DNA of 49,101 bases from Candidatus Hadarchaeales archaeon (lineage in GTDB: Archaea > Hadarchaeota > Hadarchaeia > Hadarchaeales > WYZ-LMO6). The stretch covers positions 1-49,101 of the forward strand of contig JAWCKR010000009.1 in assembly GCA_038851755.1 (NCBI GenBank), in the 5' to 3' direction. Position numbers and translations under genes: made by a program. Below are positions 577 through 10,288 of this stretch, one piece after another (the stretch's first letter is position 1; the number at the start of each line of letters is the position of its first letter). Under the pieces are notes generated by a model. It was given only the letters and a program-made list of their open reading frames with translations, was not told the DNA's origin and searched no databases.

Positions 577-3500
577 GTGGGAGAGAGGAAAGAGGGAAAG
601 CGGAAGGAGATAGAGCGGCTTCTGAAGCTTAAAGAGGAGCAGGCCGGCGGGAAGGAAGTCCTCTCCCGTCTTCTGGGGGAGCCCCCCAAGCAGGCCCCTT
701 CTCCGCCAGCTGCCCCCAAGAGGCCCTCCCCCGAGGGGGAGAAAGCTGGTCCCGTGCTTTCCGCCGAGGTGAAGGGAAAGGTGGAGAAGGTGCTGGACCG
801 CTACGGAACGGCGGAGATCCTGAAGCTGGAGGGGGAGAGCCTCCCCCTGTACCGGCTGAGGATCCCCGACCTCACGGATAAGGAAAGGGAGCTGCTGGCC
901 ACCTGCAAGAAGAAGGCCGTGGAGGAAATCAAGGTGGACCCAGAGAGCATCGCCGATCCCTCCGAGCGCCGGAGGGTCTTCATGCAGGAGCTCATGAAGA
1001 TCCTGGAAAGGGAGAGCAAGGGCATGCGCCTGCCCCCGGCCAGGGTGAAGGAGCTCTCCGAGCTGGCCTTCCACGACATGATAGGTTACGGGCCGCTCGA
1101 TTACCTCATCTCCGATGACAAGCTGGAGGACATCCTGGTGATAGGGGTGAACAAGCCTGTCTATGTCTACCACAGCAGGTACGGGATGTGCTCCACCAAC
1201 ATCGTCTTTGAGGAGGAGGACACCATCCGGTACTACATAGACAAGATGGCCAGGCTGGTGGGCAGGAGGATAGACCACCAGATGCCCCTCCTGGACGCCC
1301 GCCTCCCCGACGGCAGCAGGATCAACGCCACCATCCCCCCGGTCTCCCTGGAGGGGCCCACCCTCTCCATCAGGAAGTTCAGAAAGGACCCCCTCACGGT
1401 GGTGGACCTGATGAACTTCGGCACCCTCTCCCCCGAGGTGGGGGCTCTCCTCTGGCTCCTGGTCCACGGTCTGGACGTGAAGCCCGCCAACATCCTCTTC
1501 GCGGGTGGGACGGGGAGCGGGAAGACCACCCTCCTCAACTCCGCCACCACCTTCGTCCCCGAGCACGAGAGGATCATCTCGATAGAGGACAGCGTGAGTG
1601 GGGAGGCGGAGGTGCTGGCCAGGGTGGAGGGTAGGGTGATCAGGACCACGCTGGGTGAGCTGGTGGAAAGGGCCCTGCAGGAGAGGGGATGGAGGGCGGT
1701 CTCCGGTCACGAGGTGGGAGAGGCCCCTTGGGAGGTCCTGACCCTGGATGGGGAGGGTAAGGTGCGCTTCGAGAGGCCCAGCCTCTTCATCAGGCACTGG
1801 GTGAGGAAGCCGCTGGTCAGGATTCGCACGGCTACGGGGAGGGAGATCAGGGTTACCAAGGATCATTCCCTTTTTGGGGTGAGAGAAGGGGAGTTTCGTC
1901 CCATCAGGGGTGGGGAGCTGAGGATTGGGGACTATCTGGCAGTTCCGGGGAGAATCAGGATAGAGGGGGAAGACCCTACCTTCGATCTGACTAGCGATTC
2001 CAGGTTTGGGAGGTTCAAGCTGGCGGCCGACGGGGGGATGTACGCGCCCCACGTGACCTCTCCCCAAATCCTCCCCCCCAGGATCAAGCTGTGCGAGGAG
2101 CTGGGGATTCTGGCCGGTATCTGGTTGGCGGACGGTTTCTACGACAAGAACTCCGTGGGCTTTTCCGTCGGACAGAAGGGTGAGCTGGCTGAAACCGTGA
2201 GGAGGCTCGCCTCCCGGCTGGGGCTTAGGGTGCGAGAGCACAGCGACGGGCACTCCCTCCTCATAAACTCCGCCGTTTTCAAGACCCTCTTCCAGGAGGT
2301 GCTGGGGCTAAGGGGGGACGACTACGAGCGCAGGGTCCCGGAGGTTTTCCTCGGGGCCACGGAGGAGGTGGTAGCTGGGCTCCTGCGCGGTTACCTGAGC
2401 GCCGATGGATGCGTGACAAGATACGAGGTTCAGTTCTCTTCCGCCTCCCCAGCTCTCCTGCGGGACCTCCAGGCCCTCCTCCTCAGGTTCGGCATCATCT
2501 CCCGCCTGAGGCTGAAGGAGAGGATGGTGGGAAGCTACGGTGGGAGGGGGGTATACAGGGGTTCCATCTCCGGCGCCAGGTTCCTCCGCCTCCTGAGGGA
2601 GAGGATAGGGCTGATAGGGGAGGAAAAGAGGAGGAAGTTGGAGCAGGCCGCTTCCCGCAGGACGAGACAGGAAACGGATTCCCTCCCTCTCGCGGGGAGG
2701 TTGAGGGAGGAGCTGAGGGAGCATAGAGCCGGGTTGGCCGGAAAGCTGGGGAAGAACCATTGGTTCCTCTCCCGCCTCAGGAGGGCCCTTCGGAGGGGGA
2801 GGGTAGGGAGGGAGGAAGTGCTGGTGCTGGGGGAGCTTTCCCCCGCCTTCAGGAGGACGGCCCTTTACAGGCTGGCCAGGAGCGATCTCTACTTCGACAG
2901 GGTCGTGGGCGTGGAAGAGGAGGAAGGGGAGGGATATGTCTACGACCTCAGCCTGCCCGAGACCCAGAGCTTCGTGTGCAACCAGATCCTCTGCCACAAC
3001 ACCGCGGAGCTTCAATTGCCCCACCCCCACTGGGTGAGGCTTGAGTGCGTTCACCCGTCCACCCACTTCGTGGACGGGGAGGGCGTGTTGAGGGAGGTGG
3101 GGAAGACCTTCGAGCTTGAGCTGAAGAGTCATAGGGGTGAAATCCTTCTCTCGGGTGCCAATCTCTACCTCAGGAAGCCCAATCCGCTGCGGACTTTGCT
3201 GGCCACGGAGACTGCTCGCCTGAGGGTTTTCAGGGACAGGGTGGAGCTTTTGGGCAGAACGCACATACCCGAGTACTGGGTTAGGGTGAGAACCTCCGAC
3301 GGTTCTGAGTTGAGACTAACCCCTGGTTCACCCCTCATCGCCCTCTCGGGAGGGAGAAGGGTGCGGGTGAGGGCGGAGGACCTGAGGCCAGGCGATTATC
3401 TCCCCGTCCTCAGGAGAATAAAGGCCAGGGGACGTGCTGTCGGGATTGACCCATACTCGATTTTTGGGCCCCGCTGGAGGGTCCCGAGCGAGGAGGCCCT

Positions 3501-6500
3501 TCCTAAGCTCCGGAGGCTGGTTGGGAAGCTCAAGAAGCGTGGGCTCACCAATCGGGAGCTGGCGAGGATGGCCGGGGTCTCCCTCAAGAGCTTGGAGGGC
3601 TTCCTCTACAAGAAGGGGAACCCGAACCACATTCCCCTAGGAGTTTTGATCAGGCTCTCAGAAGGTGTCGGGGAGAGACCCCCCCGTGTACGCATGCTGG
3701 TGGGGAGAAGGGGGAAAGTCCCGGTGAGGATTCCCGGGAAGGTGGACGAAGGGCTCTCCTATCTCGCCGGCGTCATCTCTGGTGACGGAAGTCTGGAGGA
3801 GTACCGGATAAAGATTTACCCTGGAAGGAGGATGGGTCGGATTTCCACCCTCTTCAGGGAGAGCTTCGGCCTGTTGCCAGTGGTGAGGAAGAGGGTGAGG
3901 AAGGGCAAGACCGAGTGGTGCTACGTGGTGGACTCTGCGGTGGTTAGCCACTTCTTCAGGAAGGTCTTTGGCCTGCCCGTGGGGAAGAAGGCGAAGTCGG
4001 TGAAGGTTCCGGAGGTAATCCAGAGGTCGGAAGAGGGAGTGATAGCCGCCTATCTCGCCGGGCTGGTCGATACGGATGGGTGCGTGGACTGGAGGAACAA
4101 CAGGATCTTCCTGAGCACCTCGAGCCGGGAGCTGGCTTTCGGGGTGAGATACCTCCTCCTCAGGTTGGGGGTCTTCAGCAAGCTCCGGAGGAGGAAAGGT
4201 GGTTTCAAGCGGAGCTTCGGGTACCAGGTGGTGGTGAGCGGCAGGGAGAGCGAGAGCCTCGCCTCAAAGCTCCTCCCTTACCTGGAGGATCGTAATAGGA
4301 AGCGGGCCCGCGCCATGCTGGGGAGGGACTGGCAGCACCGTCCCAGGGGGGTCCTGGTGGGGGAGGGTGATGCCCTGTGGTGCAAGGTGGTGGAGGTGAG
4401 GAGGGAGAGGAACTGGCGGGCCACACCCTCCTATAACGTGGCCCCGGCTTCCTCCCATTATTATCCGGCGGGGGAAACGGGTCTGATAGCCACCAACCCC
4501 AACACCCGTCCCCCCAACATCGAGGGGCGCGGGGAAATTACCATGGACGATCTGGTTAAAAACGCCCTCCGCATGAGACCCGATCGGATCGTGGTGGGGG
4601 AGGTCAGGGGGCCCGAGGCCAGGACCATGTTCACGGCCATGAACACGGGACATAATGGTGCCCTCTTCGATACCTCAGTCATTCAGTTCCCTGATGGAAG
4701 CCACAGGCTGATCGGGGAGGTATGCGAGGGGCTCTTCCGAAAGTACGCCGGGAGGGAGAGGAAGTACAGGGACCTGGAGTTCATCGAACTTGAGGAGGGG
4801 GACAGGTTCGACGTGGTCAGCGTGGACGGGAGGCTGAAGGCGGGCGTGCACACCGTGACGAGGGTCTGGCGCAGGAAGGTCAGGAAGGGAGAGAAGATGG
4901 TCAGGATCCTGACGAGGTCCGGTCAGGAGGTGATCCTCACGAGGAACCACCCGCTCTTCACGATAGCGGGAGGTGAGGTGGTGAGAAAGGAGGCAGGCTC
5001 CCTGAAACCAGGGGAGTTCGTGGCCTGCCTGCTCTCCCCTCCCGTGGAGGAGAGGGAACCGCGGGTGGATCTGGAGCTCTTCAGAGGCCTGAGCCGGTAT
5101 CTCCTTGTGCCGGACGAGGAGGGAGAGGTCACCTTCCTCGGGAGGAGGTACAGGAAGGTCCCGAACAACGGGGGTGATGAGCTGTGGAGGGCGGAGTTCA
5201 TGCTGAGCCCCAACAGCCATCCCGTGCGCATCCCCTCTTCCATTTCCACTGAGCTGGCTTACCTTGCCGGGGTGGTGTGCGGGGACGGGTACCTCTCGTC
5301 CGGCGGGTACTTCACCTCTGCGACCTTTGACGACGAGGAGTATCTGGAGGAGTTCATCAGGTGCGCCAGGATTTACCTGCCGGGCTACGAGTTCCGGGGG
5401 AGAAGGGAGGAGAAGTTCTGCAGACTGGACCTGGGGTCTAAGATTTTCTCCGAGGTGCTGGCCAGGGTCTTTGGAATCCCCAGAGGGAGCAAAGCTGCCA
5501 GCTGGACCGTGCCCGATCTCGTGCTGGTGCGGAGAGAGATCCTCTCGAGCTACCTGGCTGGGCTCTTCGATGCCGATGGGTCGGTGGATGCGGGAACCCC
5601 TTCCATCATGCTCACCACCAAGAGCGAGGAGGGAGCGAGGAAAGTCTGGTACGGTCTGCAGAGGCTGGGCATTCCGGCCGTAGTGAGGAAGTACGAGAAC
5701 AGGGGGTGGGGGAAGGGCGCGCTTTACCGGGTCATGGTCAGGGGAGTGGAGAACCTGGAGAGATTTCTGAAGACCATCCCCATGCACCACGGACGCAAGC
5801 GGAGGGAGCTTGAGAGGGTGGTCAGGGAGCAGAGGTCGTATCGCGGGACCTACGTGGAGAGGGTGCCAGGGGTGGGGGAGAGCCTCAGGAGACTGAGGGA
5901 GTCCCTGGGACTGAGCGTGGCGGAGCTCTCCAGGAGAGCTTCCAGGCACTTGAGGGTGAGCGAGAGCCTCATCCGCCACCTCGAGAAGGGGAGGACCCTG
6001 GCGGTGGGCAGGAGGGCCCTGGGCGCCATGGCATCCGTCATGCTGGAGGAGGCGAAAAAGAGGGGGGATGCAGGGGCAGTGGAGGTTGCGTGCAAGCTCG
6101 GTTTGCTGGCATCTTCGGACGTTTACTGGGATGAGGTGGAGAGGGTGGAGGAGGCGGAGCTGGAAGGAAAGACCGTGTACGACCTGACGGTGGACGAGGA
6201 CCACAACTACGTGGCCAACGGGGTCCTAGTTTCCAACTGTATGGGCACCCTCCATGCCAACAGCGCGGCCGAGACCATCACCCGCCTCACCGAGGCCCCC
6301 ATGAGCGTGCCCCCCATCATGATTCCCGCGCTGGACGTGGTGGTGATGCTCCAGCGCATCTACCACAGGCAGAAGGGTCACCTCCGCAGGATCACGGAGA
6401 TAGCCGAGGTCACGGGCCTGGAGGGGGGAAAGCCCCAGCTGAGCAGGATCTTCAAGTGGAACCCCAGGACGGACAGGGTGGAGCCCACGGGGGTCCCCCT

Positions 6501-6697: not shown

Positions 6698-7783
6698 ATG
6701 GGCAGGAGGAGGGGCTGGCTTTCCCGCTGGTTCTCCAGAGTAGGGGGAGGGGTGGTGAGGACGGGGGAGGCCGTGGGCCGTGCGGGTGACCTGGCCAAGC
6801 TCAGGCCCTCCAAGGAGGACGAGGTGACGAGGAGGCTCAGGGAGCTCAAGGAGCTGGAGCTCAGAGCAGAGGAGGAGAGGAAGGAAGCGGAGAGGGAGAC
6901 CAGGGAGAGGAGGCTGAGGGAGGTCAGGAAGGAGGAGCTGGGCAGGCCCCTCTCCGAGCGCCTCTCCCAGACCTTCTACGGTCCCTTCCGGCGCCCGGCG
7001 GAGAAGCTCATGGGGTTCTTCAAGGGTATCGACCAGGACCTGTACCGGGCCAACCTCCCCTTCTCCCCCGACAGGTACGTCTCCACGGTGCTGGGGGTGA
7101 GCCTGCTGGTGGCCCTCCTCTCCTTCATCCTTTCCTTCCTCATGTTCTCACCCCTCTTGGCCCTGCTGGTGGCCCCCTCCTCCTTCTTCTTCACCTTCGT
7201 GTTCGGGAGGGTTTATCCCAGGAGCAGGGTGAAGAGCAGGTCGGTGCGCATCAACAGGGAGATCCCCTACGCTCTCAGGCACATGGCCACCCACCTCTCC
7301 TCCGGGATAGGTCTTCCCGAGAGCGTGACCTCGGTGAGCAAGGCCAACTACGGGGTGCTCTCGGAGGAGTTCGAGAGGGTGGTGAGGGACATGAACGGGG
7401 GGATGAGCATGGAGGAGGCGCTCACCGCCCTGGCCCAGAGGGTGGAGTCCGAGCCCCTCAGGCGCTTCGTCAGGCAGGTGGTGAGGACCCTCAGGGTGGG
7501 GGGGGACCTCTCCCACCTGCTCAACTCCCTGGCGGACGAGACCTCCTTCGAGATGCGCATGAAGCTCAGGGACTACACCCAGTCCCTGAACATGCTCACC
7601 CTCATCTACATGTTCGCCTCCTCCGTGGTTCCTGCCCTCCTCATCATCATGACCACCGTGACCTCGGGGATGGGGGGAGCCACCCTCACCACCCAGTCGG
7701 CCGCCGTGCTCTTCTTCCTCCTGGTCCCCCTCCTGCTGGTGGTCTTCCTCTTCATGGTGAAAAGGTTCGAGCCGAGGTTGTGA
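6698..7783 (+). CDS. Type II secretion F-domain (TadB/TadC-like) pilus platform membrane protein
   Basis: Motif INREIPYALRHMATHLSSGIGL...YGVLSEEF...G.SMEEAL, several TM segments, 4 bp after the ATPase. Confidence 0.88.
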   Translation: MGRRRGWLSRWFSRVGGGVVRTGEAVGRAGDLAKLRPSKEDEVTRRLRELKELELRAEEERKEAERETRERRLREVRKEELGRPLSERLSQTFYGPFRRPAEKLMGFFKGIDQDLYRANLPFSPDRYVSTVLGVSLLVALLSFILSFLMFSPLLALLVAPSSFFFTFVFGRVYPRSRVKSRSVRINREIPYALRHMATHLSSGIGLPESVTSVSKANYGVLSEEFERVVRDMNGGMSMEEALTALAQRVESEPLRRFVRQVVRTLRVGGDLSHLLNSLADETSFEMRMKLRDYTQSLNMLTLIYMFASSVVPALLIIMTTVTSGMGGATLTTQSAAVLFFLLVPLLLVVFLFMVKRFEPRL

Positions 7784-7784
7784 G

Positions 7785-8684
7785 ATGGGACTGGTGGAGA
7801 GGGCGGCGAAACTTTCCAGGCGCCTCCTGCCCGGCAGGCTGCTGGAGAGGATAGATCGCAAGCTCCTCTCCACGGGCATCCTGCTCAGCGCGGAGGAGTA
7901 CGCGGGCATCTGCCTCCTCTTCTCGCTGGTGGGTGGGGCGGTGGCAGGGATCCTGGGCCTCTTCCTCCTCTCCCCCGCCCTCTTCCTACCCCTTTTCCTG
8001 GTGGGCCTTCTGGGGACCTTCTTCGGGGGGGCCTTCGGCCTCCCTTCCTACCTCGTGCAGCGGAGGGCGGCCAGGCTGGAGAGGGAGCTTCCCGATGCCC
8101 TCAGGCAGATGGCCAGCACCCTGAGGGCGGGGATGAGCATAGACGTGGCGATGGAGGAGGTGGCCAGGTCCGGTTACGGGGTCCTGTCCGCGGAGTTCGA
8201 GAGGGCCCTGGCGGAGGTGAGGCGCGGGCGCCCCCTGGTGGAGGCCCTCTGGGCCATCTCCCTGAGGTCTGGCTCCCCCCTCTTCGAGAGGGCCTTCGGG
8301 CTCCTCATAGAGGGCATAGAGAGGGGGGTGGCGCTGGCGGATGTTCTGCAGGCGGTGGCCAGGGACATAGGGGAGGTGCACGCCCTCCAGAGGGAGAGGA
8401 GGGCCACCACCACCCAGCAGGTCCTCTTCCTGGTGGCGGTCTCCCTCTTCGCCTCCCCCTTCATCCTGGGCCTCACGGTCTCCATAGGGGGGGCCGGTGG
8501 AGGGGTGAGGATGCCGGAGGGGATGGGGGCCATCGTGCTCGGCTACACCCTCATCCAGGCCTCCCTCTGTGCTCTGGCGGTGGGAATCGTGAGGTACGGG
8601 AAGATGTCCAAGGGCTTCACCTTCCTGCCCCCCTTCCTGGTGGCCTCCGCCCTGGTCTTCAAGCTCTCGGGCTTCCTGGTGTGA
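7785..8684 (+). CDS. Second T2SS-F (TadC-like) pilus platform membrane protein
   Basis: Motif LERELPDALRQMASTLRAG...YGVLSAEF, TM segments, 1 bp after the previous gene. Confidence 0.88.
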   Translation: MGLVERAAKLSRRLLPGRLLERIDRKLLSTGILLSAEEYAGICLLFSLVGGAVAGILGLFLLSPALFLPLFLVGLLGTFFGGAFGLPSYLVQRRAARLERELPDALRQMASTLRAGMSIDVAMEEVARSGYGVLSAEFERALAEVRRGRPLVEALWAISLRSGSPLFERAFGLLIEGIERGVALADVLQAVARDIGEVHALQRERRATTTQQVLFLVAVSLFASPFILGLTVSIGGAGGGVRMPEGMGAIVLGYTLIQASLCALAVGIVRYGKMSKGFTFLPPFLVASALVFKLSGFLV

Positions 8685-8707: not shown

Positions 8708-8731
8708 TCCTAGGTGGAAAAGAAAAGACCT

Positions 8732-10288
8732 ATGCCAGAAGCCGGGAGGGGAGTGGAGATAGTGCTCACCTCCGACCTGCCGACCATGAGCAGCTTCGGG
8801 AACGATCCCTTCAAGGCCTTCCTCTGTACCTTCCCCCACCGCTTCGTCCGTCCCTTCCTGGAGAAGTACTTCGAGCCCCAGCTGGACAGGGAGGGTCATC
8901 CCCTCTTCGCTTCCTACGGCCTCAGGAAGGTGGAAAGCCTGCTGGTGCACGCCTTCGGGGAGGAGAGGGTGGCGGTGGCCCACCCCTCCACCCTGGGAAA
9001 GTTCGTGGGCGAGAAGACAAGGGTGATAGGCGTCTCCAGCCACGACCCGATGGGGCTGGCCTACGTGAGCAGGACCTACAATACCCTCCTGGGCCTGGGG
9101 GGGGAGGCCGTCAACCACTACTACTTCAGGCAGCTGATGGAGCATCCCGTGATAAGGGGGAGGAACAGGAACACCAGGCTGGTGGTGGGGGGACCGGGGG
9201 CCTGGCAGATAAGGGAGCTCGGCCTCCAGGAGGCCTTCGGCATAGACGTGCTGGTCCACGGAGACGCCGAGCGAGGCCTGGTGGAGGTGATGCGGGACCT
9301 GCTGGAGGGGAAGGAGGTGGGGAGGGAGGTCTGGCTGGAGAGGGTGGATCCGGAGACGGACTTCATACCCCCCATCCTCAGGCCCTCCAGCTACGGGTGC
9401 GTGGAGATCACCAGGGGGTGCGGCAGGGGGTGTCGCTTCTGCTCCCCCACCACCAGGAAGCCCTATTCCTTCCCCCTCGACTACGTGATGAGGGAGGTGG
9501 AGGTGAACATCAGGGGGGGCTCCCGGTCCCTCTTCGTGGTCACCGATGACCTCTTCCTCTACAGCGTGAGGCCACGCTTCTACCCCAACAGGGAGAAGCT
9601 GGTGGAGCTCTTCTCCAGGATGGCCGCGTACCCGGGGGTGGAGGAGATTCACCTCTCCCACGCGGCCATGGCCCCGGTGGTGGCCGATCCCAAGATGATC
9701 GAGGAGCTCACCCCCATCCTCCTGGAGAAGACCAAGCGGCGTCTCAACGGGGAGCCCTACGTGACGGCGGAGATAGGGGTGGAGACGGGGAGCATCAGGC
9801 TGATGGAGAAGAACATGCACGGGAAGGCCCTGCCCTTCAGCGTCAGGGACTGGCACGAGATCGTGGACACCGGGCTGGGAATCCTGAACGACCACTCCTG
9901 GTACCCCCTCTGCACCTTCCTCGTGGGGACCCCGGAGGAGACGGAGGAGGATACGATACAGACGCTGGAGCTTTTCGACAGGATCGGGGACAAGAAGCTC
10001 TTCTACGTGCCGGTGCTCTTCATCCCCATCAAGGGCACCGCCTGGGAGAACGAGAGGTGCGTGGGGCTCAGGAACCTCTCCGAGCTGCAGTGGGAGGTGA
10101 TCGCCAGGGCGTGGAGCAGGAACCTCAGGATATGGAAGAGGAACAGGGAGAGGGTGATAAAGACCCTGGGCTTTCTCTTCTTCTGGAGCTTCCTCTTCTG
10201 GAAGCACGGGCCCAAGTGCCTGCGTCCGGTGATGAGGTTCCTGGGCGTGCTTCCCGAGCGGCGCTCGCTGGAGGGAGTAAAGTTTTAG
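8732..10288 (+). CDS. B12-binding-type radical SAM protein, candidate tetraether-lipid modifying enzyme (Grs/Gms-like)
   Basis: CxxxCxxC in RGCGRGCRFC, plus YGLRKVES, HDPMGL, VVGGPGAW and GVETGS. The Grs/Gms resemblance is from memory only. Confidence 0.8.
   Translation: MPEAGRGVEIVLTSDLPTMSSFGNDPFKAFLCTFPHRFVRPFLEKYFEPQLDREGHPLFASYGLRKVESLLVHAFGEERVAVAHPSTLGKFVGEKTRVIGVSSHDPMGLAYVSRTYNTLLGLGGEAVNHYYFRQLMEHPVIRGRNRNTRLVVGGPGAWQIRELGLQEAFGIDVLVHGDAERGLVEVMRDLLEGKEVGREVWLERVDPETDFIPPILRPSSYGCVEITRGCGRGCRFCSPTTRKPYSFPLDYVMREVEVNIRGGSRSLFVVTDDLFLYSVRPRFYPNREKLVELFSRMAAYPGVEEIHLSHAAMAPVVADPKMIEELTPILLEKTKRRLNGEPYVTAEIGVETGSIRLMEKNMHGKALPFSVRDWHEIVDTGLGILNDHSWYPLCTFLVGTPEETEEDTIQTLELFDRIGDKKLFYVPVLFIPIKGTAWENERCVGLRNLSELQWEVIARAWSRNLRIWKRNRERVIKTLGFLFFWSFLFWKHGPKCLRPVMRFLGVLPERRSLEGVKF

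Follow-up and report, generated by a model that had tools for sequence, protein, structure and literature searches.

Positions 1 to 49,101 (forward strand) of contig JAWCKR010000009.1 of a Candidatus Hadarchaeales archaeon (assembly GCA_038851755.1) form a stretch hereafter called the window, which carries near its start a gene encoding a CpaF/TadA/KlbA-like ATPase of the type II/IV secretion family, which is interrupted by three inteins. The exteins match Pfam T2SSE (2.3e-39), and there are also profile matches to the solved structures of GspE (2oap) and CpaF (8rkd). All three inteins break the catalytic core of the ATPase. The second one, intein 2, is inserted between the Asp box and Walker B and is the subject of this analysis (Table 1). 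We consider it likely, from sequence comparisons, that intein 2 is an active and mobile intein of the class 1 type that works with a non-canonical catalytic set, and that it belongs to a small clade residing in archaeal pilus/secretion ATPases.

Table 1. Features of the ATPase locus; positions refer to the window unless another locus is named.
Feature	Position	Strand	Remarks
ATPase precursor (CpaF/TadA/KlbA-like, type II/IV secretion family, three inteins), 2038 aa	577-6693	+	open frame over 2038 codons
Walker A, GGTGSGKT	1504-1527	+	motif
Intein 1, 470 aa, Ser1...CHN|Thr+1	1591-3000	+	in IISIED|TAELQL box; canonical VTKDH and YVYDLS
Intein 2, 486 aa, HINT splicing domain and LAGLIDADG homing endonuclease	3046-4503	+	between VRLE and TRPPN
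Cys1 of intein 2, N-terminal nucleophile	3046-3048	+	block A (CVHP...)
Arg71-Thr72-His73	3256-3264	+	Thr72 at motif NX position; His73, candidate compensating residue, 22 residues before B:10
Block B core, Thr92-Pro93-Gly94-Ser95	3319-3330	+	B:7 Thr retained; Ser (codon 3328-3330) in place of the B:10 His
First LAGLIDADG motif, LAGVISGDG	3763-3789	+	acidic residue kept; Pfam LAGLIDADG_3 1.7e-19
Second LAGLIDADG motif, LAGLVDTDG	4054-4080	+	acidic residue kept
Block F, SYNVAP	4429-4446	+	
Asn464	4435-4437	+	block F position 4 (F:4), usually Asp
His471	4456-4458	+	block F histidine position; unconserved, Arg in P0004 and L033
C-terminus of intein 2, TNPN	4492-4503	+	
Asn484, Pro485, Asn486	4495-4503	+	opposite G:6 His; inserted; terminal cyclising Asn
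Thr+1, C-extein nucleophile	4504-4506	+	
Walker B region	4579-4611	+	motif
Intein 3, 526 aa, Ala1...VSN|Cys+1	4660-6237	+	in His box TGHNG|CMGTLHA; LTRNH and VYDLTV
First T2SSF (TadB/TadC-like) platform gene	6698-7783	+	operon partner, intact; Pfam T2SSF 4.9e-23
Second T2SSF (TadB/TadC-like) platform gene	7785-8684	+	operon partner, intact; Pfam T2SSF 3.9e-19
Radical SAM protein	8714-10288		weak B12-binding domain match
Site-b intein	L017:238-1821		
Site-b intein	L037:1528-3120		
Site-b intein	L038:1555-3153		

The predicted boundaries of intein 2 are confirmed as exact by homologues without the intein. An intein-less allele from the same family (genome G061) runs contiguously across the insertion point, the distant ATPases P0017, P0018, and P0065, intein-less at this point, read HWVP[LM]T-TREPNPEGKGEV, and in the solved CpaF (8rkd) VRLE|TRPPNLEG is contiguous at residues 245/246. 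A terminus at Asn484 (GLIATN|PN...) was rejected, as it would put Pro at position +1 and leave two residues more than in every intein-less allele. In G065, a genome of the same genus, the intein-less locus L022 (G065:C41) reads HWVRLE-C-RPPNIEG, with Cys (TGC) in place of the Thr of the other intein-less alleles (ACA in G061). Cys1 of intein 2 is likewise encoded by TGC, and the Cys of L022 could reflect an intein deletion that was offset by one codon and left a scar, which would alter the homing site.

A preliminary description of this DNA, made from the letters alone, had reported TPGS in block B, SYNVAP in block F, and a TNPN end in intein 2, with TxxH and YDL retained in inteins 1 and 3. 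The translation bears this out for all three inteins, and it agrees with the further statement that Cys1, the terminal Asn, Thr+1, and both LAGLIDADG motifs are intact without a frameshift, within an open frame of 486 aa. Cys1, the C-terminal Asn, and Thr+1 agree with class 1, in which Cys/Ser stands at position 1, Asn (or Gln/Asp) at the C-terminus, and Cys/Ser/Thr at +1. The class 2 (KlbA) reading was ruled out by Cys1 together with Thr+1. The class 3 (WCT) reading, which calls for Trp at B:12, Cys at F:4, and Thr at G:5 with no nucleophile at position 1, was ruled out by the presence of Cys1, by Leu97 at B:12, by Asn464 at F:4, and by the G:5 residue.

The position of block B was the same in three independent alignments, none of which placed it elsewhere with a normal His. 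BLASTP aligned LTPGSP with VTPTHP and VTPEHP of two Pyrococcus yayanosii MCM inteins, and in phmmer its counterparts were ITSGHS in the solved PI-PkoII and VTPIHK in the TliVMA intein. When 257 other collected proteins were queried by phmmer with the C-terminal 56 residues of intein 2, the search reached only the ATPase inteins at the same insertion site (site-a) and at a neighboring one (site-b), in seven stretches; blocks F and G were therefore placed by profile. In the profile A3 alignments, Asn464 lies opposite the Asp of YDITT (TliVMA) and YDLTV (PI-PfuI), and in block G of PI-PfuI (AGENGMIFVHN) the G:6 His pairs with Asn484, and Pro485 forms a single-residue insertion ahead of Asn486. 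It follows that the penultimate residue of intein 2 is literally Pro and that a His stands neither at G:6 nor beside it. Thus, in the block alignments to canonical inteins, intein 2 has no His at B:10, no Asp at F:4, and no His at G:6. Asp is the most frequent residue at F:4, where other classes have Cys or Trp.

Relatives were searched in two protein collections (5.8 billion and 1.84 billion sequences), in the genomes of the phylum, and in metagenome contigs. Nine records, representing eight distinct sequences that are 53–98% identical, carry an intein at site-a. Identity to intein 2 of the window is 98% for P0003/G063, 55–58% for P0004/G062 and L034, and 54–55% for P0016, P0166, L031 (identical to L032), and L033; the closest protein in the databases (98% over intein 2) is labelled as a product of a Candidatus Hadarchaeales metagenome-assembled genome (MAG). 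The preliminary description had proposed a search for alleles that conserve TPGS and NPN, and such alleles were found: the motifs are kept in 8/8 sequences down to 53% identity. Invariant in all eight are Cys1, His3, Arg71, His73, Thr92, Ser95, Asn464, Asn484, Pro485, Asn486, and Thr+1; only 197 of all 486 columns are without variation, and 91 of the 175 that make up the splicing parts. If the unusual residues arose from sequencing or assembly errors at the key codons, they would not be expected in P0003/G063, a separate assembly, nor in six more divergent alleles. Moreover, metagenome contigs from four hot-spring runs of four studies span intein 2 at 95–99% identity, with the codons of His73, Ser95, Asn464, and Asn484-Pro485-Asn486 unchanged; the changes they contain at 3054, 3324, 4443, 4464, and 4476 are third-position and synonymous. 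We therefore give an artefact practically no credence. Among the eight loci returned by a contig scan with alignment A1, ATPase inteins were confined to L035/L036 (a Hadesarchaea MAG), L037, and L038, and a contig scan of the genomes with the P. yayanosii MCM query gave no matches. Searches of the literature on inteins in KlbA/type IV secretion ATPases, in archaea/Hadesarchaea, on TXXH, and on a penultimate proline found nothing on the site-a family, and as far as these searches reach the site-b inteins are undescribed too.

We then compared substitution rates in the intein and its host. The ratio of nonsynonymous to synonymous substitution rates (dN/dS) was calculated by the Nei-Gojobori method for the N-terminal splicing part (residues 1–125) and the N-extein (267 codons); some dS values exceed 1, near saturation, so the ratios are rough. 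For the splicing part and the N-extein, respectively, dN/dS was 0.13 and 0.025 (L031 vs L033), 0.07 and 0.149 (L033 vs L034), 0.28 and 0.084 (window vs L034), and 0.215 and 0.106 (window vs L033); between the window and G063, whose locus does not include the N-extein, the splicing part gave 0.35. Both the splicing domain of intein 2 and the exteins are under purifying selection. Since all compared lineages carry the intein, the host gene stayed constrained while it was interrupted.

The intein and its host have diverged out of step. Between L031 and L033, dS is 0.97 in the exteins and 0.10 in the intein; the window and L034 share 93% identity in the exteins and 57% in the inteins; and L033 and L034 share 65% and 72%, respectively. 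This decoupling indicates homing. The distribution is patchy as well. Ten of the 66 genomes of the phylum match intein 2 at E <= 1e-20, and only three (G000, G063, and G062) carry intein 2 itself; of the seven other matching genomes, three were read (L011, L015, and L016) and contain topoisomerase VI-B or V-ATPase A inteins. The ATPase orthologue is present in five of the six genomes of the family, and the intein 2 site is empty in G061 of the same family and in G065 of the same genus. Patchy spread and decoupled divergence form the pattern of a homing element, and in a constrained gene such an element would be tolerated only if it splices.

The preliminary description had also called the block B His the most conserved catalytic residue of inteins. 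This was overstated, and what sets intein 2 apart is that the F:4 Asp and G:6 His are missing on top of it. Among 147 stretches aligned to the first 130 residues of intein 2, a sample of its relatives and no census, B:10 is His in 91 (88 TxxH and 3 SxxH) and another residue in 56 (37 TxxT, 13 TxxN, and 6 TxxS). Most of the His-less relatives are archaeal MCM inteins inserted ~27 residues after Walker A (Pfam positions; site spacing from PMC6801210). Reviews up to 2020 name only two lineages without the B:10 His (PMC4031507, PMC7765530): the Arth_1007 pseudogene of Arthrobacter FB24 and Tko CDC21-1 with its orthologues (Lys58). The latter are described as natural inteins that lack the block B His and are active via Lys58 (PMC4031507, PMC3196547, PMC6333167), and the G:6 His is stated to be absent in ~5% of functional inteins (PMC4031507). 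The MCM inteins of Thermococcus nautili and T. thermotolerans have TPET and Leu at position −1, the latter given as a trait of Tko CDC21-1 orthologues (PMC6333167); because of this Leu(−1), the lack of the His, the host, and their order within it, we infer that the TPET Thermococcus MCM inteins are such orthologues. His-less MCM inteins retain the canonical ending VYDLTV..H.F.ANG..VHN|T in 9/9 junction rows. Judged from these alignments, loss of the B:10 His alone is a known condition, but to lack the F:4 Asp and the G:6 His jointly, as intein 2 does, is not. As to the MCM site itself, 62 of 117 MCM stretches, the majority, are His-less there (TPET, TPNT, or TPEN; e.g., P0212, P0203, and P0150), a share affected by query-relative bias but far above the "small group" of the published accounts. 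The topoisomerase VI-B inteins L011 (G043:C7), P0155, and P0072 have TPEN, i.e., Asn at B:10, and L011, the sole one read to its end, finishes normally with VYDLTV...VHN|S.

The nearest relatives of intein 2 (29–33% identity over the full length) are the site-b inteins, inserted 12 residues downstream, after EGRGE[IV], in T2SSE ATPases from Hadarchaeales and from archaea of the DPANN type (P0004/L017/L034, P0017, P0018/L037, P0065, and L038 from a Micrarchaeota MAG). They read T-E-N-T in block B and PTYD[LIV]TP in block F, and they end in LV[QM]D|[TS]. The two families share the host family, Cys1, and the absence of the B:10 and G:6 His, whereas site-b inteins differ in keeping the F:4 Asp, in their C-terminal Asp, in having no Pro insertion, and in ~45 extra residues before block F. 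Site-a and site-b form one clade (support 96 with FastTree, 173 rows; 97 with IQ-TREE, 52 rows), which groups next to its sister, the His-bearing ATPase inteins of a further site (support 93), and stands apart from the large His-less MCM clade. As this separation is found in both trees, two changes of the B:10 state are needed. An approximately unbiased (AU) test under LG+G4 with 33 rows, from which five long-branch rows and, by random thinning, further rows had been dropped, did not reject a single His-less clade (difference in log-likelihood 6.0, p 0.208), and the tree rows are a biased sample, having been chosen for their kinship to intein 2 and the His-less P0150. Together, the trees suggest that the ATPase clade lost the B:10 His independently of the MCM clade. 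A more far-reaching reading, which we advance only tentatively, is that site-a and site-b represent a separate second loss and a new mechanistic subclass of class 1 that would splice at hot-spring temperatures on His73, carboxamide and hydroxyl groups, and the Asn-Pro-Asn end. Under such a second loss, it is conceivable, though on the whole doubtful, that the canonical acid/base residue has gone from B:10, from G:6, and, depending on the subfamily, from F:4 or G:7.

Comparison with known inteins points to His73 as a candidate replacement for the block B His. Like intein 2, Tko CDC21-1 is described as a natural LAGLIDADG intein with Cys1, from a thermophilic archaeon and in a P-loop ATPase host, in which the B:10 His is absent and the B:7 Thr kept. 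In 8/8 alleles, His73 (GRTH[IL]PEYW) precedes B:10 by 22 residues and a conserved Pro by two, and Tko-type MCM inteins have a basic/imidazole residue at the same spacing (W[KR]LKAP vs GRTHIP). In the His-less MCM inteins the His73 column is mostly Lys (W[KR][LI]KAP; 22 of 37 TxxT stretches), e.g., Lys66 of the T. nautili intein, 22 residues before Thr88; intein 2 has His in place of this Lys, as well as Glu instead of Leu at −1. PMC4031507 describes a position "22 residues past" B:10 whose residue may activate the nucleophile, and it puts Lys58 of Tko CDC21-1 "one residue beyond" that position. His73 thus fits the Lys58-equivalent position, although the column equivalence to Lys58 itself is deduced from the alignments. 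Tko-type MCM inteins keep the F:4 Asp and the G:6 His, whereas intein 2 lacks both and has the inserted Pro. The preliminary description had named two possible compensating residues, the His in THIPE and the His in SSHYY. The former, His73, gains support from its invariance and its alignment with the Tko-type Lys; the latter, His471, gains none, being Arg in 2/8 alleles.

Other unusual inteins resemble intein 2 in part. In PolB16 OarG and further inteins with Ser1, the His of block B is reported as dispensable, with a His ~20–40 residues upstream reaching the scissile bond from the other side (PMC10189870). This His, defined as motif NX ([RK]H; Pasch et al. 2023, PMC10189870), aligns one residue before His73: intein 1 has IRHW there, intein 2 Arg71-Thr72-His73. 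The conserved Arg before the NX position is found in both intein 2 (Arg71) and the PolB16 OarG type, but the NX His is described as confined to Ser1/Ser+1(Thr+1) inteins, where it stands directly after Arg/Lys, whereas intein 2 has Cys1, Thr72 at that position, and the His one residue later. Mja KlbA, an intein of class 2 (PMC4031507, PMC7765530), is described from the same host family at another site; as intein 2 has Cys1, the class 2 bypass is not needed.

A splicing pathway for intein 2 can be proposed on this basis. Cys1 would attack the Glu(−1)-Cys1 bond to form a thioester, helped by Thr92, retained in block B, by the small polar groups of Ser95 (B:10) and Asn464 (F:4), and most likely also by the invariant His73 at the position of the Tko CDC21-1-type compensating Lys. 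The N-extein would then pass to Thr+1, and Asn486 would cyclise without a neighboring His, with Asn484 at G:6 and Pro485 inserted after it. Conversion of the ester to a peptide bond would yield ...VRLE-TRPPN..., as found in intein-less alleles and the solved CpaF.

The homology of intein 2 to inteins is clear: phmmer matched 2208 proteins at E <= 0.001. An AlphaFold2 model (alignment A1, 10 rows) had a mean predicted local distance difference test (pLDDT) score of 77.4 and a predicted template modeling (pTM) score of 0.84 and, taken whole, resembled LAGLIDADG inteins. Its best Foldseek match was TliVMA (7qsu; E 1e-22, TM 0.82 on target), followed by PI-PkoII, PhoVMA, PI-PfuI, and PI-SceI. The solved TliVMA (7qsu/7qss), PI-PkoII (2cw7), and PI-PfuI (1dq3) share with the intein 2 model the overall fold and the domain order, and with intein 2 itself the and alignable blocks A, B, F, and G, and PI-PfuI also the AGE motif before block G; their TxxH, YDL, and VHN contrast with TPGS, YNV, and TN-P-N. 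The endonuclease and the block B region were modeled with confidence, and pLDDT fell below 50 in the segment inserted between block A and block B (model residues 44–74).

Several results weigh against splicing by intein 2 or against the part assigned to His73. The Pfam Intein_splicing profile (PF14890) gave intein 2 19.4 bits against a cut-off of 35.8 over profile positions 37–129 of 155, TIGR01445 gave 15.4 against 24.5, below threshold, and TIGR01443, for the C-terminal region, did not list intein 2 on its own but found two stretches in the whole protein with its three inteins. The main computed point is structural. The pLDDT was also below 50 over model residues 477–506, i.e., intein 2 residues 467–486 plus the C-extein flank, whereas a control fold of the canonical intein 1 (four rows), worse overall (pLDDT 60.5, pTM 0.43), yet reached 61–83 over blocks F and G. 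In the predicted model, the C-terminal active-site geometry is accordingly not recognisably canonical. As for His73, Lys occupies its column in 27 of 91 His-bearing stretches as well and is therefore no specific marker of compensation; site-b inteins carry Thr or Leu in that column; and, one residue after the NX position, His73 might sit in a strand and face away from the active site. Finally, the case for splicing and for the residue roles is evolutionary throughout, drawn from selection and conservation.

These findings have to be set against the possibility, raised in the preliminary description, of a dead intein: splicing would be abolished and the ATPase inactivated or on its way to a pseudogene, as for Arth_1007. 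The missing B:10 His, F:4 Asp, and G:6 His, the subthreshold scores with curated intein models, and the low confidence of the C-terminal blocks would all agree with decay, and two T2SSE paralogues elsewhere in the genome (33–35% identity) might cover the function. Against this, all 2038 codons lie in one open frame, the odd residues do not vary among alleles that differ at ~45% of positions, and dN/dS is 0.07–0.35 in the splicing domain and 0.025–0.15 in the exteins, with every lineage intein-bearing; the T2SSF partner genes are intact. Arth_1007 also lacks the B:10 His and has a non-consensus F:4, but it is reported as a decayed, inactive pseudogene with 66 extein residues that have no homologues (PMC3196547), in contrast to the host gene, operon, and intein conserved under selection here. 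The invariance and dN/dS thus contradict inactivation, which we regard as very unlikely, and among the options listed in the preliminary description a new mechanistic variant fits best.

A related alternative is an insertion that is tolerated without splicing, or a cleavage-only domain of the bacterial intein-like (BIL) kind. The C-terminal motif is indeed unlike canonical block G, and type B BIL domains are described as having no block G similarity and cleaving without ligation (PMC4031507). However, intein 2 interrupts the core of the ATPase after the Asp box and before Walker B, and P0004 and L034 carry a second, 528-aa site-b intein only 12 residues beyond intein 2. Cys1, the terminal Asn, and Thr+1 are invariant, and these are needed for ligation and not for tolerance alone; the homing endonuclease and the decoupled phylogeny are likewise traits of inteins. 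Simple tolerance or cleavage only is, in our assessment, highly improbable.

Active splicing by intein 2 could also be conditional or slow, taking place only at high temperature or in a given redox/pH state and so gating assembly of the pilus ATPase. With three assisting residues lost, the first and third steps would be expected to be slower, and the presence of three inteins within a single ATPase core leaves room for regulation. DNA nearly identical to intein 2 occurs in hot-spring metagenome runs of nine studies, so its native temperature is probably high; no RNA runs were listed among the sequencing runs with intein 2-like DNA. Cys446 (GD..WC[KR]V) is present in 5/5 site-a rows of A3 and 0/3 site-b rows, and its pairing with Cys1 is speculative. 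On the other hand, the selection signals are the same as for constitutive splicing, and mobility and patchy spread resemble a selfish element rather than a fixed regulatory module. We judge regulated splicing unlikely, and we retain the reading of an active, mobile intein with an altered catalytic set.

Intein 2 and its His-less relatives imply that the residue regarded as the most conserved of inteins is dispensable far more often than the reviews suggest (PMC4031507, PMC7765530), and intein 2 indicates that a mobile intein maintained by selection can be without the F:4 Asp and the penultimate His together. If splicing is confirmed, intein 2 would serve as a thermophilic scaffold from nature for asking how little catalytic equipment protein splicing needs, and for testing whether a His/Lys in the strand 22 residues before B:10 acts generally as a back-up catalyst. 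Inteins that are robust and independent of histidine also have practical appeal in protein engineering.

The two other inteins of the ATPase have distinct types and distributions. Intein 1 is of the cysteine-independent Ser1/Thr+1 type, and its IRHW conforms to the [RK]H of motif NX (Pasch et al. 2023). It is missing from P0004, P0016, and G061, where the sequence reads IISIEDTAELQL, and a Micrarchaeota ATPase (L038) has a mini-intein at this site. Intein 3 shows the class 2 KlbA-type signature (Ala1, Ser at G:6, and Cys+1), as given in PMC4031507, and the same-family genome G061 carries a mini-intein (L023) at its site. Another site, ...GPTF|CF[AT]DGY..., lies upstream of Walker A in the T2SSE ATPases P0076, P0027, P0039, and P0100, which have canonical TTNH/TKNH inteins there; with this site counted, the T2SSE ATPase family has at least five intein sites. 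Downstream of the ATPase, the radical SAM gene directly follows the pilus genes (Table 1).

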